From the NCBI GenBank assembly GCA_963826525.1, contig CAWGXH010000003.1, forward strand, positions 448,001 through 512,000: DNA of 64,000 bases, written 5' to 3'. A program made the translations under genes and the position numbers. The notes beneath the pieces were generated by a model. It was not told the origin of the DNA. It made no database searches and saw only the letters and a program-made list of their open reading frames with translations. Origin of the DNA: an uncultured Methanomicrobiaceae archaeon (GTDB lineage Archaea > Halobacteriota > Methanomicrobia > Methanomicrobiales > Methanoculleaceae). This document shows, in pieces, positions 2,661 through 37,490 of this stretch; within the stretch, counting starts at the first letter, position 1; each line of letters starts with the position of its first letter.

Positions 2661-3247
2661 CTATGTCAGCGGCGTGACCTGTATCTGTTTCGAAAGGTTG
2701 TAGGCGGTCGAAAGATCGCTCTCATTATACACGAGCACCCTTCCCTCGACGAGTAATCTATTGTCCGAAGCGGCCAATTGCGTCAGTCCCGTTGGTACAG
2801 TCCCCTTCCAACCCGGTCCGGTGATGAGATAGGAACCCGCCTGGGTGCCGGTGGTGCGTTGGCCGACATAGAAGGGGTCACCCCAGGGGTCGACGAACTC
2901 TACACTATAGTATCGTCCATCCATGTCCGGCACGTGCAAGACCTGCGGCCCTTTGCTCAAATCGAGCACGCCGATAGTGTAGAGCACGTCGTGGTTTGCG
3001 CCTGCCACGTTGTTGTGGGTGGATGGGGAAGCGAGAGTTGTCAAGGTGTAAAGCGTATTGACAGGGATGCCGGTGGAATTCGGCGTTGCTCCGAAGCCGT
3101 TATCGATAATCGAGTTTTCCCATGTGGTGTAAATGATATGGGGATAATAGTAGATGTAGAGGGGGGTGCCTATTGCCAGGTACCGATGAGCACTGTCACG
3201 GCGAACAGGCGTCGATTCTTGTGTTTATTACTTTTACTATCCGGCAT
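2661..3247 (-). CDS. DUF1254-domain protein with N-terminal membrane anchor (frameshift ~3180)
   Basis: NHDVLYTIGVLDLSKGPQVLHVPDMDGRYYSVEF..GQRTTGT.AG.YLITGPGWKG matches the DUF1254 pattern; ATG 3247 overlaps the upstream stop (TGATG); one missing base near 3180. Confidence 0.75.
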
Positions 3248-3861
3248 CAGCGCACCTCCACGACCGGCGGCACCTGGTACGTACCATTCAGGATCGCCTG
3301 GCCGGGCAGGTAGGCGCGAAGCCACAGTCTGAAGTTGCCGGAGGGTGCCGGCAGCCAGTTTGACTCGTTGCCGGATGGAGGTGCGTTTTGTATGGTGATG
3401 TCAACGGACCCGTCAGTGTTCGGCACAAGGTCCGAATATGTACCGACGTTATAGCGGTTTATCGAATTGTTCACCATATGATTGGTTAAGTCGGTCATTG
3501 TCAGCGACCAGAAGGCATCGCTGGGAGGGAGCCCTCCGGCCGGGAAGTGCAACAAATAGTTATGTGTTCCGTTCAGCCTGGCTCCCGTGCTGTCCACGGT
3601 TGTCGTCCAGTACACCGCCTCCTCCGCCACGTTGGCGCCGGGAAGGACCTGGGAGAACGCTGCCCGTGAGAGTATGTTGCCGTCCCATTTCCCGTAATCC
3701 AAGGTGGTGCTCCAGCCATTGAGCGTGATTTCCATGGTGTGTGCCTCAATGTAAATGAGCGTGCCTCCAAGGCCGAATGATGCCAGCACCGCCCCCACGA
3801 TAATTCCGAGCACTATCACGCCGATGATTTTTATTTTACTCATTGACTCCGCCACCGTCAT
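3247..3861 (-). CDS. DUF1214-domain protein with N-terminal TM helix
   Basis: NGW...ANVAEEAVY...D..G..L.G...Y.LHFP...PP..AFWSLT...N.INRY...NWLPAP.G.F.L.LRAY.P is the DUF1214 signature. Confidence 0.85.
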   Translation of the reverse strand: MTVAESMSKIKIIGVIVLGIIVGAVLASFGLGGTLIYIEAHTMEITLNGWSTTLDYGKWDGNILSRAAFSQVLPGANVAEEAVYWTTTVDSTGARLNGTHNYLLHFPAGGLPPSDAFWSLTMTDLTNHMVNNSINRYNVGTYSDLVPNTDGSVDITIQNAPPSGNESNWLPAPSGNFRLWLRAYLPGQAILNGTYQVPPVVEVR

Positions 3862-4471: not shown

Positions 4472-5413
4472 TCACGCTCCCGCTGTGACGACGAAGGTTC
4501 CGGTCATGATGGTCGGGTGGACGTCGCACCGGAAGAAGTAGTTGCCGGGCGTACTCGGTGCGGTGAAGGTGTACTTGATCGTGGCCGGGCCGGTGATGAT
4601 CTGCCCCGTGAAGATGGCGTTCTGGGCGGCGGGGGTATCGTAGACCGCAAAGTTGTGCGGAATGCCCGAATCCTCGTTGTCGAAGTCCACCGTCACGTTT
4701 GCCCCCGCGGGCACCGTGATCGTGCTCGTGTTAAACGCGATGTTCTTTGCGATCAGCCCGACGGTCACGCTCAGACCCCTGCTCGTCATGTTCTGCGTCT
4801 GGTTCTGCGCCTGTCCGGTTACGTTGACGCCCGGTGGGATCAGCACTGCATCGATGGTGTGAACGATCCCGTTGCTTGCGTTGGTATCGGCCTGGACGAC
4901 CGTTGCATTGTCGATCATGAGCGTGCCGTTCTGCACGGTCACGGTCAGGTTCTGCCCGGAAAGCGTCTGCAGCATGGTCATATTGGTCATATTCTGCGTG
5001 GCGTTCGAGGTCGCGTTGGACCCGGTCATGTTCATGAGATCTGCGGTCGTGTACGTGCCCTGAACCACGTGGAACCTGAGGATCTCGCTCAGCATGGTCG
5101 TGTTGTTCAGGAGCCGGCTCACGGTCTGGTTGCCGAGATCGTCGAATGCCTGATTGTCGGGCGCGAAGACCGTGTACGGTCCCGTGCCGTTCAGTTCTTC
5201 GGTCAGGTTTGCCGCCCGAATCGCCGTTGCCAGAGTGGATAGATTCCCATTCTGCTCGATGACGCCGACGACCGTTATGTTGGGGGTCATATTCCCGGTC
5301 TGGTTCGCGGGACTCATCGTGGTATTCTGCTCCCCGACCGGCATCCCTATAACGGCAGCAGGGATCGCCAGCAGGAGCAGGGTGCACATGCTCATCCATA
5401 CGATATATTTCAT
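4472..5413 (-). CDS. Secreted fasciclin (FAS1)-cupredoxin fusion
   Basis: Signal peptide; FAS1 motifs GPYTVFAPDNQAF, ILRFHVV, NGIVHTIDAVL; C-terminal type-1 Cu site PHNF...FRCDVHPTIMTG (His/Cys/His/Met). Confidence 0.9.
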   Translation of the reverse strand: MKYIVWMSMCTLLLLAIPAAVIGMPVGEQNTTMSPANQTGNMTPNITVVGVIEQNGNLSTLATAIRAANLTEELNGTGPYTVFAPDNQAFDDLGNQTVSRLLNNTTMLSEILRFHVVQGTYTTADLMNMTGSNATSNATQNMTNMTMLQTLSGQNLTVTVQNGTLMIDNATVVQADTNASNGIVHTIDAVLIPPGVNVTGQAQNQTQNMTSRGLSVTVGLIAKNIAFNTSTITVPAGANVTVDFDNEDSGIPHNFAVYDTPAAQNAIFTGQIITGPATIKYTFTAPSTPGNYFFRCDVHPTIMTGTFVVTAGA

Positions 5414-6002: not shown

Positions 6003-7634
6003 TTATACCGATGCTTCATCGGTGGGCTGGTAGGAGGTGTGCTTGAAGACGTACCAGATCAGCAGCCAGTTAAAGCCGATGATGATCCCCCAGACTGCAA
6101 GAATCTGCGGCATGGGTATGGGTGTGGGGAACGCCGTGCCGCCCGGCACCGGGATGAGCTCGTAGACCATCCAGGGAGACCGGGCTGATTCCCGTACAAA
6201 TCCCATCACCAGCACGATGGCCATCCCCAGGATGCCTGCGGTGAACGCCGCCGTGATCGACCCCCGGCTCAGGTAACCCCACTGCCCTTCTTTCGCCTCG
6301 CTGGTCAGTACGATCGTATCCAGCATGAGTATCGCGGCACCGATCGCCGCCATCACCCACAGGGCGACATATTTTGCCTCCATGGACCCTATCGGGTTGA
6401 TCCATGCTCCCGGTTCGGTGGAGTAGACCGAACCGAGCCACGCCGGCTGGATAAGGACGAAGGCGGCCACGAGAACGATCGCAAAGAACCCCCAGAACAT
6501 GGTTCGCAGGGTACGGTTTTCCGGCCGGGAGAGGAGCTGATCCCGCCTGCTGATGAAATAGGCAATGATGGTCAGAACGAGGCCGGAGAACAGCCCGACC
6601 ATAAAGAGCATCTCCCAGGCACGGGGGCCGTGCATGATCATAGCGAATGCACCGGGCGAGTTTTGCATGATGCTGGTCATGTACTGCTGCCCGAGGACGG
6701 GCTGCATGATCAGCCCCACCAGACCCCATAAGAGGCCGTAGGCCGCCACCCAGTCCCATTGCTTCTTCGAAGCGAAATCGTCTCTTCCCCGGTAGTGCAT
6801 CATCGCCATGGTTGCCGTCAGGAAACCGACAAACGATACTGCAGCAGCGAGCCGGTGAAACGTCAGCTGCCATAAGGTCGGGTTGTACCATGCCAGCAGC
6901 AGGTCGCCCGCTGCGATTGGAAACAGACCGGTGGTCGTATAGTCGATTGAGGGGATGTTCGGGGTCAGCATGCCGGAACCCATCATGGTGATGGCAATCA
7001 TCTGGAGGAAGGTGGCGACGGCAAAGGCGACGCCGACGAACAGATGCCATCCGGTGCTGATCCTGTCCCACCCGAACCACAAGATAAACATCAGCGTGAT
7101 GATCAGGCCGTAGAAGAGGAGATACGCGAAGAACGGCCACCACCATAGTTTGAATGCATTCATCGCGAATGTGGGAAAGAGCGCGATGAAGTACAGAATG
7201 GCTGCCGCTCCGAAGGTGCCGACCGCAGAGACGGTGATGATATTGAGGAGCGTGAGGGACCTCGCCAGGTTTTTGTAGCGCATCTTCTTATGCCGGTGGT
7301 AGAAGACGATCGTCGCCAGAATGATCCAGGACCCTCCTACGGCCAGATTCGCCAGGACGGTATGCGTCAGCAGGACGGCGGCTATGATGATCGAACGGCC
7401 GGAACCTCCCATATCGACCTCCTGGATCGGCAGGTTCGCCGGCTGCTCGACGGTTACCCCGGCAATCTGGTCCTGGAGCAGTTCGGTCGACGAGATAAGA
7501 CCGCCCTGCAGGGGTACGAATACCGTGGTCAGAATGATGAGGTAGACGACGACTGCGATAATGATCCCCCAGATGATCCTCAACCGAGGATTCTTTTCGA
7601 CATCGGTTCGCCCCGATTCTGCATTTCCCTCCAT
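6003..7634 (-). CDS. Cytochrome bd subunit I superfamily protein, CydA'-like copy
   Basis: THTVLANLAVGG (His19-like), TFHRLAAA (His186-like), MGFVRESARSPW.VY (E445/GRQPW-like); full-length paralog of 8132..9785; start MEGNAES at 7634. Confidence 0.85.
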   Translation of the reverse strand: MEGNAESGRTDVEKNPRLRIIWGIIIAVVVYLIILTTVFVPLQGGLISSTELLQDQIAGVTVEQPANLPIQEVDMGGSGRSIIIAAVLLTHTVLANLAVGGSWIILATIVFYHRHKKMRYKNLARSLTLLNIITVSAVGTFGAAAILYFIALFPTFAMNAFKLWWWPFFAYLLFYGLIITLMFILWFGWDRISTGWHLFVGVAFAVATFLQMIAITMMGSGMLTPNIPSIDYTTTGLFPIAAGDLLLAWYNPTLWQLTFHRLAAAVSFVGFLTATMAMMHYRGRDDFASKKQWDWVAAYGLLWGLVGLIMQPVLGQQYMTSIMQNSPGAFAMIMHGPRAWEMLFMVGLFSGLVLTIIAYFISRRDQLLSRPENRTLRTMFWGFFAIVLVAAFVLIQPAWLGSVYSTEPGAWINPIGSMEAKYVALWVMAAIGAAILMLDTIVLTSEAKEGQWGYLSRGSITAAFTAGILGMAIVLVMGFVRESARSPWMVYELIPVPGGTAFPTPIPMPQILAVWGIIIGFNWLLIWYVFKHTSYQPTDEASV

Positions 7635-7705
7635 ACAACATCCTCCGTCAGGCATCCGGTATCCTGAATGTACTTCCCTGTATGTACCCCGTCCGGGGCC
7701 GGAAT

Positions 7706-8050
7706 TCAGACATCTGCACACCTCTTCTCCCCTGTATTCGAGTCTCCGGCGCCTGAACGGATCGAAACGATCGGTCTCGGCCGGAAACGTGCGGGAGGTC
7801 CGGCAGAGTATCCACGGCGAGAGAGGGCAGGGAGATCACACGCTGGTGTGCCCGTTCGAACGTGCGGAATACGCTCCTTCCACCGGACTGCAGTCTTCTT
7901 CGGTTCCGTCTTCATGGTCATGACCTCGATCAGAGTTGCGGGACAGCGGATCACGGTCAGGCCGAGCGCCCAGAACAGGTAGATCACCAGAATCATATAG
8001 CCGATGATCGCTCCCCACACGACGTAGAATCGGACTCTTCGTTCAGGCAT
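7706..8050 (-). CDS. Small protein with a single N-terminal TM helix between the two CydA-like genes; 3' end uncertain
   Basis: MPERRVRFYVVWGAIIGYMILVIYLFWALGLTVI after a GGTGA-type RBS; the remainder may be frameshifted or a second ORF. Confidence 0.5.
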   Translation of the reverse strand: MPERRVRFYVVWGAIIGYMILVIYLFWALGLTVIRCPATLIEVMTMKTEPKKTAVRWKERIPHVRTGTPACDLPALSRRGYSAGPPARFRPRPIVSIRSGAGDSNTGEKRCADV

Positions 8051-8131
8051 CCGTCATCACCGCCGTATCTCCGTGCATATTCATCTCTCCTTGCTTTCTC
8101 TCCATACCCGGAGAGGGAGAAGTGCTCTGCA

Positions 8132-9785
8132 TCAGAGTTCCTCCTTCGTCTCCGGATGCTCTGCGGTCACCTTTGTTGTGAACCAGAATATTGCCCAGAT
8201 CAGGACAAGGATCACCCCCCAGATGACGAAGATCTGCGGCATCGGCACCGGCGTCGGGAATTGCTGCCCTCCGGGCACGGGCACGATATTATAGAACAGC
8301 CACGGCGATCTGCCCGACTCCCGCACGTAGCCCATCACGATGATGATCCACGAACCGAGCACCCCGGCCACCGCTCCCGCCCACCGCGACGAATGGGTTA
8401 TGGAGCCCCATTCGGACTCCAGCCGCCGGCCAAGGATGAGGGCATCGATCCCCAGCATGACCAGGCCAACGCCGATCAGGATGATCAGAGCGATAAATTT
8501 CCAGTACATGAAGCCGAGCGGGTTGATGATCGCGCTGACGTCATACTTGCTCGTCACGCCTCCAAGCCATGCGGGGTTGACGAGGAAGAAGCCGACGGCT
8601 GCGATGACGACGACGAACGCCCGGAAGAGTTGTCGTATTCTGCGATTCTCGGGTCGTCTCAGCACCCGATCCCGCCGCTCAATGTAGTAGACAAGCACAA
8701 AGAGGAGGAGGAATGTGAGCAGGGCGAGCATCATCAGCATCTCCCATGCCCGGGGTCCGTGTCATGATCATGCTGAACGCCTGCGGCTGTTTGGTGAAGA
8801 TGGTGAACATGTACCAGAGGCCGAACACAGGCTGGAAGACCAGTCCGAGCAGTCCCCAGAGGATGCCATACGACCCTGCCCAATCCCAGAACCGTTTCGA
8901 AGACGAATTTTTCTGGTCGTAGAAATGGAGCATGGCAAAGAACGCGATCATGAACCCGAAGAACGAGGCGGCGGCAGCCACGCGATGGAACTGGAGCGGC
9001 CATATGGTCGCGTTGAACCACCAGTTCATGTAATTTGCAAACGGCATGCAGAAGAAGCAGCTCGTCTCGTTGAGCCAGTTGATGCTGGTCGCCCCTGCGG
9101 CAGGCGTCAGCATCCCGGCGGCGATGGTGTCGATCAGTGTCGTCTGCAGAAAAACGTCGAGCGGGTAGAATACGGCGAGGACCATCGTCCATGCCGGTTT
9201 TATCTTGCCCCAGCTGAACCAGAGGGTGTAGAGGAAGAATATCTCGGCTCCGAAGGTGATCGCCTCTATGAAGAGCGGCCACCAGTAGATGTGGAACGCG
9301 TTGACGGCGAATGTCGGGAAGAGCGAGATGAAGAAGGTCATCCCCCCGATGGCGTAGGTTGCACCCGCAGAGAAGAGGATGACGTTGAAGAGCAGGAGAG
9401 ACCGTCCGAGGTGCAGGTACCGGGTCTGGCTGCTGAGGAACCACAGGGCGATCGTGGCGAGGATCACCCAACCCCCTCCCAGGTGCAGGTTGGCGAAGAC
9501 GACGTGGGAGAGCATGACGAAGGCGATGAAGATCGACCTCCCCGAACTTCCGAGATCCGTCAGTTGAATCGGCACCTGTTCCTCGTATGCCGGGTTCGCG
9601 GCCGCCAACTCGGTTGAAAAGATCGATGTCGAAGAGGTGAGCCCTCCCTGTTGAGGTACGATGTAGACGATGAGAATGATAAGGAAGATTGCCAATGCAG
9701 CGAGAAGTCCGTAGATCTTTCTCATATCGCCCCTCGGCTCAGCATCCGGGGGGGATTGCCCTGTATCCGTATACCCGTTGGACAT
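8132..9785 (-). CDS. cydA: Cytochrome bd subunit I superfamily protein, CydA-like copy (frameshift ~8762)
   Basis: SHVVFANLHLGG, IEAITFGAE (E99/E107-like), QFHRVAAA, MGYVRESGRSPW; removing one base at ~8762 restores MIMHGPRAWEML as in the paralog. Confidence 0.85.
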
Positions 9786-10042: not shown

Positions 10043-11774
10043 TCAGGCCGTCGTCGAAGTGTTACCTCCGGGAAGGCCGAATGCGACGACGTATCCGCCA
10101 GGATTCTGGGTCTGTATGCCACCTGCGGGTACCAGGAGCACTCCGTTGCCGATGGACGGCCCGCCGACGGAGGCCTGCGAACCGAGCTGGAACCGCCAGA
10201 GTTCGTTCCCGGTATCCGCATCAAGGGCGAAGATGGAACCCGTAGCCCACTTCGGAGACCAGGTCGGGCCGCCGAAGGCGCTGTACTCGTAGGGTGTGCC
10301 GACCGTCGATACGTTGCCGCTGAAGACCACACCGTTCGTCACGAGAGGCGAGCACCAGGTGGGGGTGTAGGTGTCGTACTGCCACTTGATGTTGCCGGTC
10401 GCGGCATCGAGCGCCACCACGGACCCGTTGCCGATGCCGTTCGGCATCGCATCGAATGCCGGTTTCGCACTGCCTCCGGGGCTGGGCAGCGTGGAGAAGA
10501 TCATGCCCTGGTTGCTCACGGCGGCGTAGACGGTGCCGTTGTCGTCAGCCGCAGTGTAGGCCTCGATGCCGTCACCCGGTCCCGGCCAGGTCACCGGACT
10601 GCCGTTCTGCGTCGGCGTAGAATTGTCGTTCATCGTAATGGCGAGGTTCTTCCACCAGACGATCTCGCCGGTGTCCGGATTCATCGCCGCGATGTCTCCA
10701 TGTTTATCGTGGCCGATGACGTACTTGGTCGTGCCGTTCGAGGTGTTGACGGTGACCAGGTTCGTGCCCCAGGCGGTATCCCAGTCGTGGGTGTCGGGCG
10801 TCTGCACCGGGAAGATCGTGCCGTTCGCCACGAAGGGCGTCGCCCAGAGGATCGAGCCGTTGGTGCAGTCCACTGCAATCACGTTGCTGGTGTAGTTGTT
10901 GGCGCCCGGTCGGGTTTCTGCGTTAAAGTCCGGTGCTGCGTTGCCGACCGGCAGGTAGACGACGCCTTTCTCCTCGTCCACCGCTCCTCCTGACCAGGTG
11001 GTTGCCCCGCCATTCATGGTCGTGTTATTGCCCGTGACCCACGCCCCGACAGCGGTCTCGGTCTGCCAGAGCATGGAGCCGTTCTCCTTGCTGACGCCGG
11101 TCACCGTTCCCCTTGCCGGGAACCCGAACGGCGGATCATCGCCGAGAGCGGATCCCGCGATGATGACGTCGTTGCAGATGAGCGGGGGTGCGGAGATTCT
11201 CCAGGCGCTGCCGTTCTGGAGATTCGGAGACTCCCATACCCTCTCACCGGTCTCGGCGTTCAGCGCCACGATCGTTCCGTTCGCAATGGTGGGCACATAG
11301 AGGGTGCCGTTCTCGTAGGTCATCCCGTGAGCGGTCGAGACCCGCGGAAGACTGGCTCCGGCAACGAGCGTGACGTTCGTGTCGTAGAACCACTTCACCG
11401 TACCGGTGTTGAGGTCGAAAGCGATCACCTGGGCTCCGTTGTTCTCGACATACCCGGTATCGCCGACGATCAACGGCGGCGCTTCTACGGTATACTCGGT
11501 GTTCAGGATCCACTTCACCTGCAGCTGATCGACGTTATCTCTTCCGATCGCTGTCTGCGGGCTATACCGCGACATAGCATTGTCATAATTGGTCATCGGC
11601 CAGTCTTCGGGCGTCACCGTATAGGCGCTGCCCGCACTGCTGGTCGCATTGGTCGTTACGCTGGTGGTCTGGTTCATGTGGTTGGGTCTGATTCTCCTGG
11701 GCACACGCGCCGATCGGGAGCAGAACCGCCATCACCAGGGCAACGATCAATACGCCTTTCCAAATATCTTTCAT
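10043..11774 (-). CDS. Secreted PQQ-dependent dehydrogenase-like beta-propeller protein (frameshift ~11690)
   Basis: Signal peptide MKDIWKGVLIVALVMAVLLPIGACA in ORF 11583..11774; DWPMTNYD..SRYSP...NV..L..KW, repeated A.D..TG...W blades, GG..W...AVD.....VY...GN..P....RPGANNY, HDWD. Confidence 0.85.
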
Positions 11775-12140: not shown

Positions 12141-13193
12141 TTACGAATACCCGGGGGAATTCGGGGGGACGACGTACCAGAGGCCGCCGAACTGGTTCAG
12201 CCCCTGGCCTGAGGTCTGGCCCGGCGACGTATCCGCGGCATAGTAATACAGGGGCATTCCTTTGTATGCGGTCTGCTTCGACCCGTCACTCCTGGTAAAC
12301 GAGGTGAAGTCGGAGGCTTTCAGGTCGGACGGGACAGATATCGACGAGGCATAGAAGACCGGCCACACCCCGGTACATCCTCCGCTGCAGGAACTCTTAT
12401 CCCTGGAGTCGGTCGTGAAATTGTACAGCGTCCTTCCTTTCCCATCGACCAGGAATGTTCCCAGCTGGCTGGTCGAGCTGGTCTTCACGGTATACGACGT
12501 GGATGAAGACGTCCCCGTCGGGGTCGGGGTAGCCGTTGTGGCTGTGGTTGTTGCCGTCGCGGTCGGAGTGGGTGCGGCAGTCGTCGCCGTGGTGTTCGCT
12601 GCGGTCGTGGCCGTCGTGGTCGGGGTAGTTGTTGTTGCCGTAGTATTCGTTGCAGCCGGGGTAGCCGTGGTTACGTTTGCTGCTGTCGTGGTCGGGGTGG
12701 TCGTCGCCGTGGTCGCCGTGGTTGTGGGTGTAGCAGTTGCGGTTGCGGTGGCCGTCGTCGCCGCCGACTGCACGAAGACCTCAACCGAATCGGCGACGGA
12801 GGGGTTCAAGGGTGTGTTATCGTTATTGACCAGTTGGACTGCGAATACGTGGGTGCCCGGCTGGACATTCTCCCAGGTGTATGAGGTATCCGCCGTGGGG
12901 GGAGCGGTCCCTTCTCTCGTGATGGCAGGGCTGCCCGGCTCGATCGGGATCGAAGAGACGTCCATGTAATACAGAAGGTGCCCCTCGCCCGGGACGTTCG
13001 CCTGCCCGGTCTTGTTCACCAGCGTGATCTGGCCGACATCGACGGTCACCTGGACGCTGCCGGTAGGGATCTGCGCTCCGCTCTGAGGCGAGGTGATCGT
13101 CACCATCGGCTGTGCCGTCGATACACAGGCGGCGAGGATGGTGGCAATCGCCAGAATGAGAAAAGACAGGGCTATTACATGAAACCGGTTCAT
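12141..13193 (-). CDS. Lipoprotein: Ig-like domain + Thr/Ala linker + Lipoprotein_15 (Yx4D secreted repeat) domain
   Basis: Lipobox LAAC; C-terminal LVDGKGRTLYNFTTD..CSGGC..WP...RSDGSKQTAYKGMPLYYYAAD..PG...GQG....WYV. Confidence 0.85.
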   Translation of the reverse strand: MNRFHVIALSFLILAIATILAACVSTAQPMVTITSPQSGAQIPTGSVQVTVDVGQITLVNKTGQANVPGEGHLLYYMDVSSIPIEPGSPAITREGTAPPTADTSYTWENVQPGTHVFAVQLVNNDNTPLNPSVADSVEVFVQSAATTATATATATPTTTATTATTTPTTTAANVTTATPAATNTTATTTTPTTTATTAANTTATTAAPTPTATATTTATTATPTPTGTSSSTSYTVKTSSTSQLGTFLVDGKGRTLYNFTTDSRDKSSCSGGCTGVWPVFYASSISVPSDLKASDFTSFTRSDGSKQTAYKGMPLYYYAADTSPGQTSGQGLNQFGGLWYVVPPNSPGYS

Positions 13194-13231
13194 GAGCGGA
13201 TAGTCCCGGAGATCTGATACAAAAATGTTTC

Positions 13232-14910
13232 TCACGGCGAAGCCCGGCACCCTGCCATGGTAACGGCGTACCCCTGGCCTGGAAGGGATCGTTCTCCGGC
13301 GTCCCCTGCAACGACCTGGGTCTTCCCGTCTCTGCCGGTAACGGGAGGTTTTCACCCCCGATCCGGAGCGCAATGATCGAAGGAGTGCCGTTCGAACCGA
13401 ATCCTCCTCCGGCGGGCCAGATTATGGTATCGTTGACGACGGCAGGCCATGCAGTGATGCGGTCCGGCGCAGTATAATTCCAGACGGCCTCGCCGGTCGT
13501 GCGGTTCAACGCGTATAAATTCCCGTCAAAGGTACCGGTAAAGACCAGATCGTTGACGACCGTGGCTCCTCCGACATCGACGGTGGGAAAGGTGCGTTCC
13601 CAGACGATCTTGCCGGTGTCGACCTCAATCGCAACCAGACTTCCATTGCCTTCCTGATAGGGTGGGATGTAGGGGGTTACGTTCCCTGCGAAGTACGCAT
13701 CGGACGACCAGTTCACGTAGAGGTTGTTGTATGCGGCAAACACGACCCCGTCGCTGTACGCCATGGGGGTTTCAACACCGCCCAGCGTACCCGGATAGAC
13801 CGTTGTGCGTCCGGGGGGAAGGGCTGCCAGCTGGTCGTTCTGATGCCTGCCGACGACTGTTTCCCAGAGGATGAAGCCGTTCGTCCGGTTAAATGCGTAG
13901 ACCCGCCCCATTTTGCCCGCCCCGATCACAATGTCCTGATCGAGGCCGCTGATGTTTGCGGAGGTCAGTATCGGGGGAATCTGGAAATCATAGTCGAAGA
14001 GGCCGTGCGGGACGACTTGCGTGTACCAGAATCATGCTGCCGGTCGAGTGGTTCAGAGCGAGAAGGCAGTTCGTATAGAGATTCGGGCCCGGCCGGCTCG
14101 CCCCGTTCGGGTAATCCTCGGTGCCGACGAAGGGTGCGGGGTTCCCGGTACCCAGAACATGATGCCGGTAGCCGGATCGATGGACGGGGTATACCAGCAT
14201 CCGCCGCCGCTATTGATCTCAGGGTGCCCCCAGAGATCGGGCGAGTCCACGGTGCTGATGTTCCAGACAACCTCCCCGGTCTCCTGATCCAGGGCGGTGA
14301 TCATCCCGATGCCGCCGGGGGCATAATCTATGTCCCCGATACCCGGTACGGTCGATGCGTACACCAGGCCGTCATAGACGGCGGGCTGAATATCGATCCC
14401 CGTGGTCGCCACGTTCGAGAGCCTCGTAGACCAGATCTCCGAACCGGTGGTGGCGTTCACGGCAGTCATCGTATACACGCCTCCGGCAAAGAATACCTTT
14501 CCCCATCCGACGGCAGGACCGTTTGGCCCGAGCACAAGTTCGGACGTGGGTTCAGAGCGCCATCGCACTGCACCGGTCCGCAGGTCGATAGCAGAGACGT
14601 TGGCTCTTCCGTCCTGGAAATAGACCGTATCACCCATGATAATAGGATTGCTCTGGGCGCCGCCGAACGGATTGGTGCCCGTGATGTTCCGCGACCAGGC
14701 GAGCTTGAGATCCGTGACCGTTGTGGAGTTGATGGGAGAATGCATGGTAGCCCGGGTATTGTTGTAATCAAAGTTCGGCAGCGGCCAATCATTGGCGTAC
14801 GTGACCACCTCCGGAGGAATGGCCGGGTTTGCGGGCTCCGCAGCAAGCGCCGGAGAGGCAATGAGCCAGAGGCTCAGGATAACCACGCAAAAAGCGATCT
14901 TCCGATGCAT
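13232..14910 (-). CDS. Second secreted PQQ-dependent dehydrogenase-like beta-propeller (frameshifts ~14145, ~14030; 3' end approximate)
   Basis: Stitched from ORFs 14053..15078, 13988..14200 and 12823..13929: signal peptide MHRKIAF..ALA, NDWPLPNFDY.NTR, GGGCW..PSID, GTGNPAP...SRPGPNLYTN, QVVPHGLFDYDFQ, GAGKMGRVYAFNR, GGVETPMA. Confidence 0.8.
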
Positions 14911-15274
14911 AATGGGGACAGCATCCGAAACCGGATAGATAAGCATTCCCCCTGCTCCCCGGACGGTGTGCCGGGTACTCACCGAGGTCATCCCGAAATT
15001 CCCGTGCCGGGAGGGGGCACCTCCTCCCGGACTCACGCATCCTGCTGCAATAGTCGGCAGTGCGGCGGAGAGAAGCACGACAGAGAGGAGAATCCTTCAG
15101 TGTGCCGCAGATTCGGTAGGTTCCGTCGTATGTTTCGCCAGGGCGGGCTGTCCGCGGATCGTCGGCCGGTCATTGATGCGAGGCAGAGTCCTGTCGTCGG
15201 GAAGGCTCGACATCCTGATTGCGGAAAAAAAAGACGGGATCTGTCCGGGAACCCTGCATGCCGAGCCTGCCCGG

Positions 15275-16062
15275 TCACGATCCCGGCGTCACCGTGGGCG
15301 TGACGATATACGTGACGTTCCCGGGCCCCACCGATCACCTCTCCCGTCACGGTCGCGAGCGGGGTAATGGTCGGCAGCGGCGTAATCGTTCCGAGAGTGA
15401 GTATGGGGCCGGAGGCCGTTGTCGGCGGTACGGTTGCTCCCGGTCCCACGGCAATCAGCTCCGCAATACCCACTGCGGGCGGATCGAGCGGGGTAGTATT
15501 CGTCAGGACCAACTGTGCGGAGAAGTTGTGAATACCAGGTGTCAGATTATGCCAGGTATACGTGACATTCGTTGAGATTGCCGTAGAACCCGTCGCACCT
15601 TCGGGGAGGACGTCCGCCTTCGTATCCAGGGCGGTCTGCGGTGCGGCGTCGAGGTAGTAGACGATACGTCCCTGATCGTACGTGCTTGAGATGTTTTCAT
15701 ACGTCGATGTCAGGCTAAAGTTCTCCACGAGGACCTCAATGGTCACATCCGTCGAGGGGACTGCACTATCATACTGCGGCGATAGTATCGTGATCTTCGG
15801 GTTGCCGCTGCCTGGTACTACTCCCGGCGTCATGCCCGCTGCAGGCCCTGCAGGCTGCGTGGTCTCTGCCGGCGCCGTCGTGGTTACGTTTGCTGCTGCC
15901 GTGGTCGCGGGAGGTGTGGGTGTCGCGGTTGGGGTGACGGTGCCGTGGCGTTTCCTGATGGGCTCGTGCATCCCGCTCCGAGACAGAAGGCCCCGAGAAT
16001 GAATATGATTGCCAATATCCCGGCTTTTTTATACCTGGTGGCGAATGATGCCCTCGTGCCAT
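15275..16062 (-). CDS. Lipoprotein with Thr-rich linker and an Ig-like domain paralogous to the N-domain of 12141..13193 (several frameshifts)
   Basis: Reframed N-terminus ...AGILAIIFILGAFCLGAGCTSPSGNAT; PKITILSPQ...YYLD...YTWHNLTPGIHNFSAQLV....PLDP aligns with PMVTITSPQ...YYMD...YTWENVQPGTHVFAVQLV....PLNP. Confidence 0.7.
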
Positions 16063-16287: not shown

Positions 16288-16738
16288 TCAGGTTACGATG
16301 AACTGTCCGGTCATGATTCCCGGGTGGACGTCGCACCGGAAGAAGTAGGTGCCGGGCTGGCTGGGTGCGGTGAAGGTGTAGGTCGTGGTTGCAGGACCGG
16401 TGATGATCTCGCCTTTGAAGATGGCGTTCTGGGCGGCAGAAGTGTCGTAGACCGCGAAGTTGTGCTGGATGCCGGAGTCCTCGTTGGTGAAGTCCACCGT
16501 CACGTTTGCCCCTGCGGGTACCGTGATCGTGCTCGTGTTATATGCGATGTCCTTTGCGATCAGCCCGATGGTCACGCTCTGCCCGCCTCCGGTGGCTGTT
16601 GTGGTGGTCGGGGTTGTGGTGGTCGGGGTTGCCGTTGTCGGCGTGGTCTGGTTTCCTCCGGAGGAGGAAGTTACAGCCGGCGATCAGGACGACTGCCACA
16701 ACCGCGAGGAGTATCATAATTCGATATGGTGACGCCAT
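16288..16738 (-). CDS. Cupredoxin lipoprotein (plastocyanin/halocyanin-like; frameshift ~16670)
   Basis: MASPYRIMILLAVVAVVLIAGC lipobox, Thr-rich tether, QHNF...FRCDVHPGIMTG; domain nearly identical to that in 4472..5413. Confidence 0.88.
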
Positions 16739-17468: not shown

Positions 17469-19917
17469 TCACCTGGCCCACCGGATCTCGCCGTGATCGA
17501 TGAGTTTGTAGACGCGAACTTTCACCCAGTCCATGATCACGAGCTCCTCGACGATGGAGTACAGCCAGACGATCCCGGCCAGGTACCAGCCGATCGGCGT
17601 GACCCCGATACCGACGGCGACGATGACGGTTGCAATGGCCTTGGTGATGATGGCCGACCAGAGCAGAGCCGAACCCGGCCTGATCGACCAGAACGGCCCT
17701 CTGGTGCGGGAGACGAAGATCGTGAGGTGCCCCGCCACCGCCAGCTTCAGGAAGATGAGCGACTGGACGACCGCAAGGCTCAGCCCCAGCGTTACGTAGG
17801 CCAGATAGAAGAGAATAATCGTGGCGATGACACCCACGAATCCGATGAGTGTCGCAAGGGTGATGATCTCCCGCATCTTCCACTGTTCCGGAGACTGTGA
17901 GTAGAGGACGTTATCGTAGGCGATGGTCATGATCGGGAGGTCGTTTAAGAGCGACAGGAGCACGATCAGCAGTGCGGTGATCGGGAAGACGTTGAAGATG
18001 ATGATGATGGACGTGACGAAGAAGAGCACGCGGATGGTCTCGGCGATACGGTAGATCACGTAATGCACCATGCGCTGGAAGATTCTCCGGCTCTCCTTGA
18101 TCGCCTCGATGATCACCGAGAGCCCCGGTTTCGTGATCACGATCGATGCCGCCGATTTCGCCGCATCGGTGGCACCGGCGACCGCGATGCCGACATCGGC
18201 CTTCTTGAGGGCGGGTGCGTCGTTCACGCCGTCGCCGGTCATGCCGACGATGTGCCCCCGGGACTGGAGGAGGGAGACGATACGGTACCTATGTTCGGGG
18301 AAGACCTCGGCGAAGCCGTCCGCCTTCTCCACGATCTCCCCCGCCTCGGTGTCGTGCTCGTTCAGGAAAGCGTCGGCGGTGGTGATATTCGTCTTTAAGT
18401 TCACCTCTTTTGCGATCTCTTTTGCGATCGCCACGTGATCCCCGGTGACCATCTTGATCTCGAGCCCCATCTCCTCCGCCGTCTTGATGGTCTCCGCCGA
18501 ATCGGTCACGGGGCGGATCGTAGAGCCCGAGCACCCCGACGTACGTCCAGGTATCCCCGTCGCCGCTCCGTGCGACGCCGAGCATCCGGTATCCTTTTTT
18601 CGCAAAGGTATTCGAGAGATCGTCGATCTTCCCGCCGATCTCCTCGTTCCCGCCCGTCAGTTTCTGGATCACCTGGGGAGCGCCCTTCGCCACCTTAAAC
18701 TCGTTGCCCTCGCCGTCCCGCACCGTCGCCTCCGTGCGTTTGACCACGGGATCGAAGGGCTTGAACGCGGCAACGGTGTAGGAGCCGAGTTTCCCTTTGA
18801 GGCCCTGCCCCTGTTTCGAGTCGATGATCGCGACATCGATGGGGTCCTGATCCTCTTCCCTCGATGCGAGCAGGGCATCGAGCAGCACATCGTCCTTCCC
18901 GGCATCGCCGAACGGCACGATCTCGGAGAGGGTGAGTTTGTTCTCCGTTATCGTTCCCGTCTTGTCGGAACAGAGGATATCGACGCCGGCCATCTCCTCG
19001 ATGGCAACCAGTTTGCTGACGATCGCATTGTACTTCGTGAGCGCCACCGCTCCGACGGCCATGGTGATCGACAGGACGGCCGGCATGGCGGCAGGAATCG
19101 CCGCCACGATCAGGACGAGTGCGAACTGGAGCGTAGAGAGAATGCTCTCCTGCCGGATGATTGCGACGAGAAACGTGATTGCGACCAGGCCGATTGCGAG
19201 GACGATCAGGTAATCCCCGATCTTCAGGACGGCTTTCTGGAAGTGGCTGACCGTTGCCGCCTCTTCGGCAAGTTCGGCGGTCTTCCCAAAGAATGTCTTC
19301 AGTCCCGTCGTCACCACGACACCGGTCATTTCGCCCTGTTTTGCGATGGAGCCGGAGTAGGCGACATCCGATGCGTGTTTCTCGACCGGCAGCGACTCCC
19401 CGGTCAGTGCGGATTCATCTGCCGAGAGGTAGTCTCCTTCCACGAGCTTGATATCGGCGGGAATGATGTCCCCCATCCGCACCCGGACGATATCGCCGGG
19501 GACGAGCTCCCGTGCAGTGACCTCCTGCCATTTCCCGTCCCGCAATACCCGTGCTTTCACTGCAAGCCGTTTTTTAAGCATTGCAATGGCGTTTCCCGCC
19601 TGGCGGCCCTGCCAGAAACCGACGACTGCGTTGATGAGGAGCAGCGCCAGGATGAACGCGAAATCCTCCCACTTCTGGGTGACTGCGGAGATTATTACCG
19701 CAGCCTCGATCATATAGGGGATGGGGCCTCTGAAATACTGTAAAAACTCAAGAATCGGATTTCTTTTCGTTTCCGCGAGCTCGTTGTATCCGTACTGCTG
19801 AATCCTGTTCTGCGCCTCCGATGCGGAAAGACCTTTCCGGCTGGTAGACAGGGCCTGATATACGTCATCCACGGACGCTGATTTGGCATCGTCCGTGCTG
19901 ATCTCGTCCTTCCCCAT
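17469..19917 (-). CDS. P-type IIIA plasma-membrane H+-ATPase, copy 1 (frameshift ~18505)
   Basis: TGES, CSDKTGT, KGAP, MVTGDH, MTGDGVNDAPALKKADVGIA, YRI and TM6 LLND; ORFs 18289..19917 + 17469..18605. Confidence 0.92.
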
Positions 19918-20014
19918 GAACCTCCCCCCTGCCCTCTTACTGCCGGGAGTATATTAAATGCTGGTGCCGCCGGAAGAACCTGCGATGCTCCCTCTCTGCC
20001 GGGCGTATCCGGCA

Positions 20015-21788
20015 GCTCGAGCAGATACGCTTCCGAGGCGTATCTGCGCATCATCACGTGGCTGTTGAAGTAGTACGCAATCAAACCGACGGCGTTCTTC
20101 ATACGGTGCGTCCACTCGTCCTCCATGCTATAGTAGAGGGGCAGAATGACGTACTCGAGTTTGTTGTAGAGATCCCGGAGCTCCTGCGCTCTCCGCTGCT
20201 CTTCGGTGACCGGTTCATCGGGTCCCGGGCCAATCGCCCAGCCGGTGACGCCTTCGACGCATCCCTCGACCCACCAGCCGTCCAGGACACTGAAGTTCAT
20301 GACGCCGTTAAACGCTGCCTTCATCCCGCTGGTCCCGGACGCCTCCATGGGGGGGAGCGGAGTATTCAGCCAGACGTCCACGCCGGACGTGAGTTTTCCT
20401 GCCAGGTCCATGGAGTAGTTCTCCAGATAGACCACCTCGATCTCGCCCTTCAGCCGATCGCGGAATGCATAGATGTCCTTGATGAGCTGCTTGCCGCCCT
20501 CGTCATGCGGGTGCGCCTTTCCGGAAAAGAGCAGTCTGGATCGGCCATTTTCGGTTGATCTCCTTCAGCCGTTCGAGGTCGGAGAAGATCAGGGTTGCCC
20601 GTTTGTACCCGGTGGCCCTGCGTGCAAACCCGATCGTCATGGCCTTTGGATCCAGGTTCACTCCGGTCGATCCGCGAACGTCGTCGATGAGTGCCTCTTT
20701 TGCCTTTACATGGGCATCCCAGATCTCCTCGTTCGGGATCTTCCCGACCCGCACGAGCAGTTCGGGTTCGTTCGCCCACCCGCGAATGTATCGGTCGAAC
20801 AGTTTTCGAAACTCGGGACTGGTCCAGGTGAACGGGTGGACGCCGTTGGTAATCTCGCGAATGTGGTATCCGTGAAAGAGCTTCTGGGAGTACTCCTGGT
20901 GGGCTTTGGCGACGCCGTTGTGGTATTTGCTCATGTTCAGCGCGAGAAGGGTCAGGTTCAGCCGGTCCTCGCCTCCGTACTTCTTCAGGGTGTCGATGGG
21001 GAAGTCGAGCGCTTTTCCGACATCGTCGTACGAAAAGGTATCCATTGCAGCGGCAACGGGCGTATGGGTCGTAAACACACACATATCGCCTGCCGTATCG
21101 GCATCATAGCCGTTCATCGTCATGAGCTCGAGGGTGAGAAGGCTGGAGTGCCCCTCGTTCATGTGGTATCGTTCTACCCTGAAGTTCAGGGCTTTCAGCA
21201 TCCTGACGCCGCCGATACCCAGCACGATCTCCTGCCTGAGCCGATAAGCACTGTCGCTGCCGTAGAGGTAACTCGTAATCTGCCGATCGTCCGGCGCATT
21301 CTCCTCCAGATCCGTATCGAGGAGGATGACCGGGAACCAGGCCGCCCACCGGGCTTTCATGGTCATGGAACCAGGCACGGATACGGACGTCCCGGCCATC
21401 GATGCGTACGGTGACCGTCCGAGGGCAGGAGCCGCATGTACTGAGCGGGGTCCCATTCGTCCGGAAGTTCCTGCTGCACCCCGTCCCCGGTTATCTTCTG
21501 CCTCAGGTATCCTTTTCTGCTGACCAGCGTGACCGCGACGAGCGGAATGCGGAGATCCGCACTGGATCTGACCGCATCTCCGGCGAGAACTCCCAGTCCT
21601 CCGCTGTACGTCGGAATGTCGCTCTGTAATCCGATCTCCATCGAAAAGTATGCGATGCGCGAACCTTCCAGAAAACGGCGCCTGTGAATCTCACTGTCGA
21701 AGTAGTAGGTCTTCCCCCAGGCATCCGCCTTGTACTGTGCCGTTTCGGTGTCGACCGGGCTTCCGGATATGGGATCTTTTACAATCAT
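20015..21788 (-). CDS. glgP: Alpha-glucan (glycogen/maltodextrin) phosphorylase with N-terminal YHS-like domain (frameshifts ~21420, ~21332, ~20540; stop approximate)
   Basis: AYFSMEIG...[55 protein letters not shown] (PLP lysine), SVLDGWW. Confidence 0.9.
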
Positions 21789-22397
21789 GGCGTATTCGCC
21801 CCCCCTCGGGTGTGACCACTCCGGCATATGTCGCCGGACTATCCATGCTGCAAAAGCCCTTGTCAAGAGCGTCCGCATCACGCCGGCCATGGCTGGATGG
21901 GGCTGTATACCCGATCGACTGGATGTCTCATAGATCGGGGTATATACAGGTATCGCTCTCCGGCAGTAGGTGACGACCCCGGACAATTCCGGCCGCCCGG
22001 ATGATCCGTGCAGCATGCCCCTGTCGATACAACAGTGCCCGCCGGGCTCCCCTCTTTTACCCCTTATCTCACCGTATACCGGCACTTCCACATTCAAAAC
22101 CCGCAGACCGGCGTATCGGTACTCAAGACGGAGCGGTTCGCGGCATGTCATCCCTGTGCACCGGGCCGTTTGAAACCCGGGAAACGGGATTCGGCACTGT
22201 TCCCGATGAAGATCCGATGCCGTGCCTGAGGATACTGCACAGTTCATACGTGATCAGTCTGCAAAAGAGCGGCCGGAATCTATTAAAGGTCTGTTGCCGA
22301 TATGCCGATGGCGTGGCCATCCGGATGCCCGAAGATGCATGCGGTCGGACGGGTTTTGGTTTGAGCACATTGTCCGTGATTGGGGGCGAAGTCACGT

Positions 22398-36562: not shown

Positions 36563-36986
36563 GGCGCCCCGCGGCACTCTTTTCAAACCATACTATATAA
36601 ACTGCAATGATTCGCCGGGGGGATGCAGGCGGATGCATTGCACGGATGTCGGCATCCGCCCCCCCCTCAGGCCCGATGGTGCCGGGCAAATCCATGGGGA
36701 TCAGAGTGCCGGCACCGCGACATCAGACAATTCCGTACACATCCCGTGGAAACCCTGGCGCCGGGTACGGGGCAAATCGTTAGCGTGGACCTCCAGGCCG
36801 TTCCGATCGCTTTTCGACCGCTACCCGGGAAGGGCGGCCGGTGCCCGAAGCGCTTGAAGTGGAGGCTTATGGGGATCAGAACCGGGGTTCGGAGTAGCCT
36901 TTCCTACATGGCTGCCTGACCGGAGCAACGCTACGGATGGGCCCCCAACGCAATGATTATATATAGTGTGTGTACTGGGTCTCCCT

Positions 36987-37490
36987 ATGAGACCAATAGG
37001 AGTTCTTCTCATGGCACTTCTTGTGGTGAGCGCATGCGTTCTCATCGCAGGGTGCACATCGCCCAGCGGGAACGCCACCACCCAGGCGACGACTCCGCCA
37101 ACCACGGCGGCAACGAATGCAACGAATACCACGGCGTATACCGTGATGACCGCCTCGAGCAGCCAGCTGGGGACATACCTGGTCGACGGGAAGGGAGTGA
37201 CCCTGTACAATTTCACGATTGACTCCAAGGATCAGAGTGCCTGCAGCGGAGCATGCGTGAATGTGTGGCCGGTCTTCTATGCCTCGTCAATAACCGTCCC
37301 GTCCGATCTGAATGCGTCCGACTTCACCTCGTTTACCAGGAGTGATGGGGCGATGCAGACCGCATACAAGGGAATGCCCCTGTACTACTATGCCGCGGAT
37401 ACATCGCCGGGTCAGACCACCGGGCAGGGACTGAATCAGTTCGGCGGCCTCTGGTACGTCATTCCCCCGGATTCCCCCGGGTATGCGTAA
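36987..37490 (+). CDS. Lipoprotein with Lipoprotein_15 (Yx4D) domain
   Basis: IAGC lipobox; domain highly similar to the C-domain of 12141..13193; TTATATATA box at ~36957; T-tract after the stop. Confidence 0.88.
   Translation: MRPIGVLLMALLVVSACVLIAGCTSPSGNATTQATTPPTTAATNATNTTAYTVMTASSSQLGTYLVDGKGVTLYNFTIDSKDQSACSGACVNVWPVFYASSITVPSDLNASDFTSFTRSDGAMQTAYKGMPLYYYAADTSPGQTTGQGLNQFGGLWYVIPPDSPGYA

Follow-up and report, generated by a model that had tools for sequence, protein, structure and literature searches.

RESULTS

Two adjacent CydA-like genes in a methanogen genome

The stretch of DNA analyzed here (the window; 64,000 nt of contig CAWGXH010000003.1) comes from an uncultured Methanomicrobiaceae archaeon and contains two adjacent genes, arranged in tandem on the minus strand, whose products resemble CydA of the cytochrome bd superfamily. 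We refer to the upstream gene as a and the downstream gene as b. The pair, the small open reading frame (ORF) that separates its members and the break that interrupts a are as follows.

8132..9785, minus strand: upstream CydA-like gene, a type; read-through product of 550 aa; PF01654
8757..8762, minus strand: 1-nt insertion (+1 frameshift) in a, splitting the gene into ORFs 9785..8679 and 8740..8132
7955..8050 (start; full extent 8050..7706), minus strand: small ORF with a single transmembrane (TM) helix, resembling a conserved ORF of ~40 aa
6003..7634, minus strand: downstream CydA-like gene, b type; 543 aa counted from MEGN; intact; PF01654

The longest ORF of b starts at 7721. The two proteins are 43% identical over 549 alignment columns (E 1e-164). 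Pfam PF01654 matches b weakly but above its cut-off of 26.2 bits (4.4e-14, 52.3 bits), and matches a in two parts (8.4e-11 and 1.2e-4), the N-terminal one scoring 41.5 bits against the same cut-off. No NCBIfam model matched a, b or two of their orthologs, and no bd-type gene besides the pair was found in the genome. Among the matches listed, the closest database protein to a is about 60% identical, its own truncated record (P0122) aside.

To obtain a full-length a protein, we read through the break by a four-letter step (CGGA as G), which gives 550 aa (P0001). The resulting junction, MIMTGPRAWEM, agrees with NIMTGPRAWEM of the intact ortholog in a related genome (G015). Another read-through code (ACAC as H) was discarded, as two further in-frame sites matched it.

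Residue equivalences to solved CydA structures

Residues were mapped by comparing a 30-sequence profile with solved chains and counting equivalences along the printed alignments, in the numbering of the upstream copy. The profile matches 5doq_A of Geobacillus (E 7.7e-14) and 6rko_A of E. coli (E 1.3e-10); the read-through a, searched as one sequence against solved structures, gave no match at E up to 1. In a, H94 is equivalent to His19, E174 to Glu99, E181 to Glu107, position 200 to His126, H267 to His186, and E489 to Glu445, which we take to be a heme ligand in the solved CydA structures. The spacing between E174 and E181 is one residue shorter, as in the Geobacillus type. The C-terminal stretch bearing Glu445 gives a weak local profile match, but the common E-x-x-R-x-P-W string is unambiguous; in a, this motif can be read only across the frameshift. 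The b copy keeps H91, H197, H260, M418 and E482, and has Y171 and I178 in place of Glu99 and Glu107. Murali, Gennis and Hemp (Murali et al. 2021, bioRxiv 10.1101/2021.01.16.426971) describe His19 as a ligand of the active-site heme, E99/E107 and H126 as proton-channel residues, and H186/M393 as the ligands of heme b558.

An initial annotation of this DNA, made from the letters alone, had proposed that both copies keep His19-, His186- and E445-like residues and that E99/E107-like glutamates occur only in the upstream copy. Profile alignment to solved CydA confirms both proposals (E174/E181 versus Y171/I178), and all the residue equivalences claimed, His126 included, proved correct. The strings quoted are also as reported: IEAITFGAE in a versus AYLLFYGLI in b, AWTM versus GWHL, CFFCM in a, and MGYVRESGRSPW / MGFVRESARSPW.

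Two of these strings turn out to be features of the window rather than of the pair. Position 200, where b has a His126-like residue, is Thr in window a. Among the matches listed, 120 of 122 database and window homologs have His there and one other has Gln; His is also found in 58 of 59 locus proteins, of both a and b types. The supposed His126 asymmetry thus stands as a reading of the strings but not as a property of the pair. Similarly, the CFFCM string is present but is not a pair feature, Cys being found at neither CFFC position in any other homolog (122 listed homologs; 59 locus proteins). At this spot the +2 frame reads ELLLLH, nearer to the GLLxMP of the orthologs, and the CFFC motif may be an assembly artefact.

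A Lys252/Glu257-type quinol site is the conserved Q-loop motif of qOR enzymes. No K252/E257-type motif was found in a or b; at the equivalent place a has QPQAFSMIM and b has SPGAFAMIM, which bears out the reported lack of a QPxKxAxxE motif. There is no CxxCH heme c motif in b or in a as printed, and no C-terminal extension. An invariant Met, M426 of a, lies in the string NPxGxMxxK and falls exactly at the start of a TM7-like helix in the structural model described below. From sequence and model together, M426 is probably the equivalent of Met393 and would pair with the His186 equivalent.

Distribution of the family and loss of the channel glutamates

Database searches returned 233 homologs with b as the query and 195 with a, the best 120 of each being listed, and a scan of species-representative genomes gave 59 loci. 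By title, 51 of the 59 loci are archaeal and 8 bacterial. The archaeal loci belong to Methanomicrobiales, Methanotrichaceae and other Methanosarcinales, Methanomassiliicoccales, Thermoplasmatales, Asgard lineages and unclassified archaea; the bacterial loci belong to Anaerolineae, Christensenella, Sphaerochaeta, Peptococcaceae and Atribacterota. At 50% identity, three full-length clusters exceed 600 bits, after which the next full-length relatives drop to about 235 bits. The subfamily is compact in sequence space, and its carriers are mostly archaea from anoxic settings, Asgard lineages among them. In the matches listed, cultured Methanoculleus species (M. chikugoensis and M. bourgensis) are named as carriers. 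Of 41 related genomes, the oxidase genes are present in only 3.

Most loci have a single gene, 44 of the 59 fetched being without a tandem pair. Tandem pairs occur in 15 sources, some of them near-duplicates of each other: the window, nine Methanoculleus-clade loci plus G015, and four Methanotrichaceae loci. In all 15, where the relevant part of the gene is present, the copy with both glutamates lies upstream and the copy without them downstream. The His19 and His186 positions, the invariant Met and an invariant Lys are kept in all 59 aligned locus proteins, and the Glu445 position in 58, the exception being a truncated gene. Both Glu99 and Glu107 positions are kept in 45 of the 59, and the first alone in two single copies (L049, L055). 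Both are lost in 12, comprising all downstream pair copies and one chimera, L029. In place of the two glutamates, Methanoculleus-clade proteins have Tyr/Ile or Tyr/Val, and those of Methanotrichaceae have Asn/Gln or Thr/Gln. In every full-length b protein (Methanoculleus clade, 7 of 7; Methanotrichaceae, 4 of 4) the His19, His186, Glu445 and Met positions are kept, from which we infer that b probably contains heme.

L029 (6902-8637, from a Methanoculleus metagenome-assembled genome) was considered as a solitary b gene and ruled out. Residues 1–170 share 90% identity with an a copy, and the remainder is 91–95% identical to a b copy, with a frameshift near the end; this chimera is probably a collapse of two paralogs in assembly. 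Apart from it, no b-type gene was found among the loci that lacks an a-type neighbor.

A quick maximum-likelihood tree of 58 rows, L029 excluded, places the a and b proteins of Methanomicrobiaceae in one clade (SH-like approximate likelihood ratio test, SH-aLRT, 97) and makes those of Methanotrichaceae sisters in a separate clade (SH-aLRT 98). Because the two families' a and b proteins fall in separate clades, two independent duplications are indicated. Both b clades have altered the same TM2/TM3 residues, N134, E174, F178, E181 and Y186, which are near-invariant elsewhere. This pattern in the alignment points to convergent loss of the polar residues of the channel in the two b lineages.

Predicted fold and dimer

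We modeled the fold with AlphaFold2 (AF2), using the intact b ortholog P0163 of a Methanoculleus locus, which is 59% identical to window b. The model (predicted local distance difference test, pLDDT, 78.9; predicted template modeling score 0.85) has 12 long helices: an extra N-terminal helix, a nine-helix core and a two-helix hairpin. The N-terminal addition is the extra TM segment that the initial annotation had described in both copies, seen here in the b ortholog. Next comes a conserved linker on the outer side, in which P-x-Q and P-x-Q residues are invariant. The hairpin occupies residues 337–395, where canonical CydA has its periplasmic Q-loop. In a Foldseek search with this model, ten subunit-I-sized bd oxidase chains come first (E 5.5e-10 to 2.3e-7), with a best template modeling score of 0.66 and identities to the solved chains of 13–18%. 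Chains of subunit-II size enter the list at E 1.4e-3 and not before, a gap of about five orders of magnitude.

For the complex, residues 40–535 of a and 38–533 of b from the same intact Methanoculleus locus were used as input, each with its alignment. The prediction gave an interface score (ipSAE) of 0.66 (runs 0.66, 0.63 and 0.66), and the best of three controls gave 0.00. Of 157 solved complexes, 116 reach the mark used for ipSAE, as do 2 of 215 mismatched pairs; these figures are approximate here, as our own alignments were used. The runs share at least 97% of contacts, and partner pLDDT is at least 74. In both chains, the predicted interface comprises TM2/TM3, loop 233–240, TM9 and linker 64–75, and is pseudo-symmetric. 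The Glu positions and their replacements lie outside the predicted contacts. In canonical enzymes, CydA and CydB likewise meet through TM2/TM3/TM9 faces. Support for the heterodimer proposed at the outset is in silico only, and comes from the a-then-b order of 15 of 15 pairs and a complex prediction above controls.

The break in a and the quality of the assembly

To gauge how often genes are broken in this assembly, ORFs of at least 300 aa from 200 kb of a same-genus genome (G001) were compared with it, orthologs being accepted at 60% identity or more. This gave 65 orthologs, all on contig C4 of the window's assembly, of which 25 are split over at least two reading frames, some with three or four breaks. 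Within the window, the other broken genes are a PQQ (pyrroloquinoline quinone)-type gene, a P-type ATPase, a glycogen phosphorylase and a DUF1254/DUF1214 gene; broken stretches lie at 2661-3861, 12823-15078, 17469-19917 and 19710-22247. Since one break in 3.3 kb is what 25 split genes in 65 would lead one to expect, the frameshift in a is most likely an assembly error. A programmed frameshift was ruled out by the intact G015 ortholog and by the breaks throughout the assembly.

Three public DNA runs of one study contain small shares (0.05–0.10) of the 9.2-kb stretch, and their contigs leave the frameshift site and codon 200 uncovered, so the frameshift was judged from the assembly-wide split rate. 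A public sequencing-run search listed no RNA run containing the 9.2-kb stretch. One 224-nt short-read contig (run X1, depth 3.4) equals the window exactly, minus one base at 14973; this omission fits the indel errors of the assembly, and a single low-depth contig may itself err. In an assembly this rich in indels, the frameshift, Thr200 and the CFFC motif are unreliable and should not be interpreted, and any single-base feature in the window's genome requires independent reads.

Neighboring genes

The pair lies within a minus-strand cluster that runs from 16575 down to 4472 and encodes, in order, a cupredoxin, two PQQ-type proteins (one gene broken), a, the small ORF, b, and a fasciclin + cupredoxin protein. 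The members outside the pair are as follows.

16288..16575, minus strand: cupredoxin-domain ORF at the head of the cluster
12823..15078, minus strand: second PQQ-type propeller gene, with two in-frame stops and a garbled stretch
10043..11704, minus strand: PQQ-dehydrogenase-type beta-propeller protein, directly upstream of a; PF01011 5.6e-47
4472..5413, minus strand: secreted fasciclin + cupredoxin protein; PF02469 4.8e-34, PF13473 1.3e-9, PF00127 3.4e-6

The type-1 copper ligand pattern (H...C-x2-H-x3-M) is intact in the fasciclin + cupredoxin protein, which is a candidate electron donor. TIGR03075 scores 168 bits on the 10043..11704 protein, below its cut-off. By a local cupredoxin profile, 26 of 61 sources have cupredoxin ORFs, all of them methanogen or Thermoplasmatota loci, and in 18 of the 26 the ORF lies directly upstream on the same strand. 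All 12 cupredoxin ORFs tested were confirmed by Pfam; they include single-domain, five-domain and PQQ-propeller fusion (L047) forms. Two secreted proteins with Thr-rich linkers (12141-13373 and 15033-15971) are encoded inside the cupredoxin/PQQ cluster and a third at 36966-37490. Lipoprotein_15 repeats are present in 12141-13373 and 36966-37490, and 15033-15971 has no Pfam match. The 12141-13373 protein also has a GEGH-containing domain, whose counterpart in a related locus (L053) matches DUF4399.

The a–b spacer is about 500 nt in the window versus 100–164 nt in 13 other measured pairs. The possibility that the intergenic stretch of ~540 nt is a repeat was ruled out, as it is unique in the genome. 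An ORF of ~40 aa encoding a single helix lies between a and b in 9 of 9 Methanoculleus-clade pairs and 0 of 4 Methanotrichaceae pairs. In all nine it begins on the a stop codon (e.g. L010 8629-8751, L012 8617-8739), and its consensus is ...ALTYxMWVAIAVYIGIAIYVFWHFGFTKLPPP. The window version (8050..7706) is divergent and over-long, and a 29-aa ORF in the window overlaps the a stop codon. CydX is the small subunit of canonical bd; by analogy, the ~40-aa ORF may encode a small subunit specific to its lineage.

With all lineages taken together, the genes found most often beside the oxidase genes encode a Usp + PCP_red protein (in 36 sources), an ABC ATPase (in 24) and an ABC-2 permease (in 20). 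Beyond the methanogens, an unnamed 231-aa protein is encoded beside the cydA-like gene in 19 sources. This gene (L018 5180-5875, L043 8662-9348 and 17 other loci) follows the cydA-like gene in bacterial and Asgard loci, and the Usp + PCP_red gene comes next; its sole match is PNPOx-like and sub-threshold (E 0.0026). Methanogen loci with cupredoxins are mostly without it.

In the window's genome, the Usp/ABC-2 module on contig C4 lies 13 kb from an AhbA/B-like pair and three AhbC/AhbD/NirJ-like radical-SAM genes. This island spans ~1589.6-1594.7 kb (L089) and 1600.8-1610.5 kb (L090). Besides the two AhbA/B-like siroheme decarboxylase genes and the three radical-SAM genes, of which one is split, it contains a further PQQ-type dehydrogenase gene and the Usp + PCP_red / ABC ATPase / ABC-2 permease module. 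AhbA/B-like genes are present in 23 of 41 related genomes, including all three that carry the oxidase genes. Heme synthesis is thus plausible in the window's genome, without being peculiar to genomes that have the oxidase genes. Elsewhere in the window, the segment 40001-44000 has a G+C content of 0.461, versus 0.53–0.64 in the remainder, and a 475-aa ORF (40943-42370) without a Pfam match; it may be foreign DNA.

DISCUSSION

Relation to known bd-type systems

The a/b asymmetry is a genuine and robust finding, and the residues behind it are correctly mapped. It is also a rediscovery of a published pattern. Murali et al. (2021) divide the cytochrome bd superfamily into qOR, OR-C and OR-N families. 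In their scheme "a" subfamilies retain E99/E107 and "b" subfamilies do not, His19 is present in all paralogs, and the a/b pairs, products of several independent duplications, probably each form one enzyme. The proposed split into a catalytic and a non-catalytic subunit follows this scheme and is therefore not a new inference. The hypothesis of one catalytic and one relay subunit is reasonable, and has already been published in general form.

The pair resembles the a/b proteins of OR-N and OR-C in consisting of adjacent CydA paralogs that lack a quinol site, with Glu/Glu in a only and His19 in both. The preprint describes OR-C proteins as having about 8 helices and CxxCH heme c motifs in a C-terminal periplasmic extension. 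OR-N proteins, as described there, lack quinol site and heme c motifs, have alternative donors in the operon, are rare in Archaea, and have 10 (N3–N5) or 14 (N1/N2) helices. By that description the present pair is like OR-N, with no quinol site, no heme c motif and alternative donor genes nearby; unlike OR-N, 51 of the 59 loci here are archaeal. Five features go beyond the main text of the preprint. Twelve helices are predicted; the distribution is mainly archaeal; the window pair stands beside a cupredoxin, a word that does not occur in that text; the b copies keep the His186-, Met- and Glu445-equivalent positions; and a conserved single-helix ORF of ~40 aa separates a and b.

Also among the closest known systems are the "CydAA'-like" OR-N1/OR-N2 proteins of Nitrospira, Nitrospina and "Ca. 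Manganitrophus", which are likewise uncharacterised and without a quinol site (PMC10839748). These are presumed to be high-affinity O2 reductases fed by a periplasmic carrier. They have 14 helices, come from aerobic or microaerobic bacteria and have a presumed cytochrome c donor, whereas the present proteins come from anaerobic archaea and have cupredoxin neighbors. No quinol-site-free bd-type enzyme is known to have been purified, and the same source calls the subunit make-up and function unconfirmed. Our literature searches found no description of such a system in methanogens, or of a cupredoxin partner.

CydAA' (qOR4a/qOR4b) of Caldivirga maquilingensis and other archaea also consists of two CydA paralogs without CydB, and its second paralog likewise lacks E99/E107 and keeps His19 and His126. 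However, CydA (qOR4a) of that enzyme has a quinol site and oxidizes quinol, whereas neither subunit here has such a site, and the b558 ligands are poorly conserved in CydA', whereas both subunits here keep b558-type ligands. E. coli bd-I CydAB (6RKO/6RX4) and the Geobacillus thermodenitrificans enzyme (5DOQ) are similar to the present proteins in fold, in the ligand and channel residues of subunit a, and in the TM2/TM3/TM9 type of the predicted dimer interface. Unlike in canonical CydAB, a TM hairpin replaces the Q-loop, an N-terminal helix is added and the partner is a CydA paralog; no cydB or cydX gene is present.

Weighing the readings

On balance, we lean toward the reading that a and b are quinol-site-free CydA homologs that form an OR-N-like, cupredoxin-fed heterodimeric O2 reductase in a Methanomicrobiaceae methanogen. 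The two proteins, each with 12 predicted helices and a hairpin in place of the quinol-binding Q-loop, would most likely pair pseudo-symmetrically through their TM2/TM3/TM9 faces, as CydA does with CydB. Subunit a, with three putative heme sites and a cytoplasmic proton channel, is the likely site at which O2 is reduced to water. Subunit b, which retains the ligand positions and has lost the polar residues of the channel, probably has hemes that take in or store electrons without turning over O2. The methanogen order to which the host belongs is not known to have quinones or cytochromes, those of c type included. The gene neighborhood suggests that electrons most likely arrive from outside the membrane by way of a blue-copper cupredoxin, sometimes fused in relatives to a PQQ-type propeller protein, that would replace quinol. 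In a strict anaerobe, the enzyme would probably serve to scavenge traces of O2 while separating charge.

Several observations weigh against this reading. The dimer prediction may succeed through likeness to solved CydAB structures, and does not separate a/b from a/a or b/b. In the hidden Markov model alignment, E. coli Met393 falls on a Leu ten positions past the invariant Met, within a weak local match. The 12 predicted helices differ from the 10 or 14 that the preprint gives for OR-N subfamilies. The window's cupredoxins lie 590 nt downstream of b and 6.5 kb upstream, not directly upstream of a, and the Usp/ABC-2 module that usually follows the oxidase genes is on another contig (C4, ~1607-1610 kb). 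As to heme supply, the NCBIfam equivalog cut-offs are not reached by the ahb-like radical-SAM genes (298 vs 500; 332 vs 650), and AhbA/B-like genes are also present in 20 of 38 relatives without oxidase genes. Finally, if the frameshift and Thr200 were real, the catalytic subunit would be damaged in the window.

That last point is the core of the view that the locus is decaying in this genome and the oxidase no longer works. It would account for the frameshift near 8757-8762, for Thr where 58 of 59 locus proteins have His, for the longer a–b spacer and for the confinement of the genes to 3 of 41 related genomes. We consider this improbable, given that 25 of 65 conserved genes of the assembly are split, some three or four times, that other window genes are broken as well, and that one break in 3.3 kb is about what assembly error alone would produce; both halves of a are otherwise well conserved. 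It is also possible, though unlikely, that the pair is not an O2 reductase but a transmembrane heme wire exchanging electrons with the outside, for example for uptake by direct interspecies electron transfer (DIET), running from surface cupredoxin and PQQ-domain proteins through the hemes to an intracellular acceptor. The hosts are strict anaerobes and the genes cluster with those for secreted cupredoxin and PQQ-domain proteins. Moreover, in Methanosarcina barkeri, cupredoxin-, PQQ-domain and "cytochrome bd-type quinol oxidase" genes are 2- to 7-fold up in DIET (PMC6315138). However, the M. barkeri bd gene is given 9 TM helices in that source and so is probably of the canonical type. No cytoplasmic redox partner is conserved beside the genes, and the Glu99/Glu107 channel and three heme sites, near-invariant in 45 of 59 proteins, are a better match for proton-coupled O2 chemistry than for a passive wire.

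Two further alternatives concern the partnership of a and b. They might form separate homodimers, a2 being an oxidase and b2 serving in sensing, peroxide or NO handling, or electron storage. Most loci (44 of 59) have no tandem pair, and since a single copy must act alone or as a homodimer, homodimerization is probably ancestral; the complex prediction is also compatible with a/a or b/b. Against this stand the a-then-b order at short spacing in 15 of 15 pairs, the finding of no b-type gene without an a-type neighbor (L029 being a chimera), and the loss of the same channel residues in two independent b lineages, which is easier to explain if b has a partner, a, that provides the channel function. 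These make separate homodimers about as unlikely as the wire. We give very little weight to the idea that b is a heme-free structural partner like CydB, its "ligand" residues serving other purposes. The second subunit of canonical bd has the common fold and no heme, which counts in its favor, as does the poor conservation of b558 ligands in the second subunit of CydAA'. Yet none of the four ligand-equivalent positions varies among the 11 full-length b proteins, which come from two independent lineages, and the b model is far closer to subunit I than to subunit II.

Beyond the heterodimeric O2 reductase that we prefer, a more elaborate and rather doubtful proposal is a copper-to-heme respiratory branch, in which a surface PQQ-type dehydrogenase, fused or coupled to a cupredoxin, would feed single electrons to a six-heme a/b complex, with b as an electron store and the ~40-aa protein as a lineage-specific third subunit. 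The store in b would let a complete O2 reduction by four electrons from a one-electron donor.

Implications

Both the a/b hypothesis and the cupredoxin donor can be tested at the bench, since cultured Methanoculleus carriers are named in the database matches. The locus adds a member to the known class of a/b-paired bd-type proteins that have no quinol site, and its probable cupredoxin donor, together with the cultured carriers, makes it a tractable case. The parallel loss of channel residues may serve as a natural experiment in how a homodimeric oxidase becomes a heterodimer of catalytic and non-catalytic subunits. For methane ecology, the system would, if the reading is true, provide one concrete way for methanogens to withstand trace oxygen.

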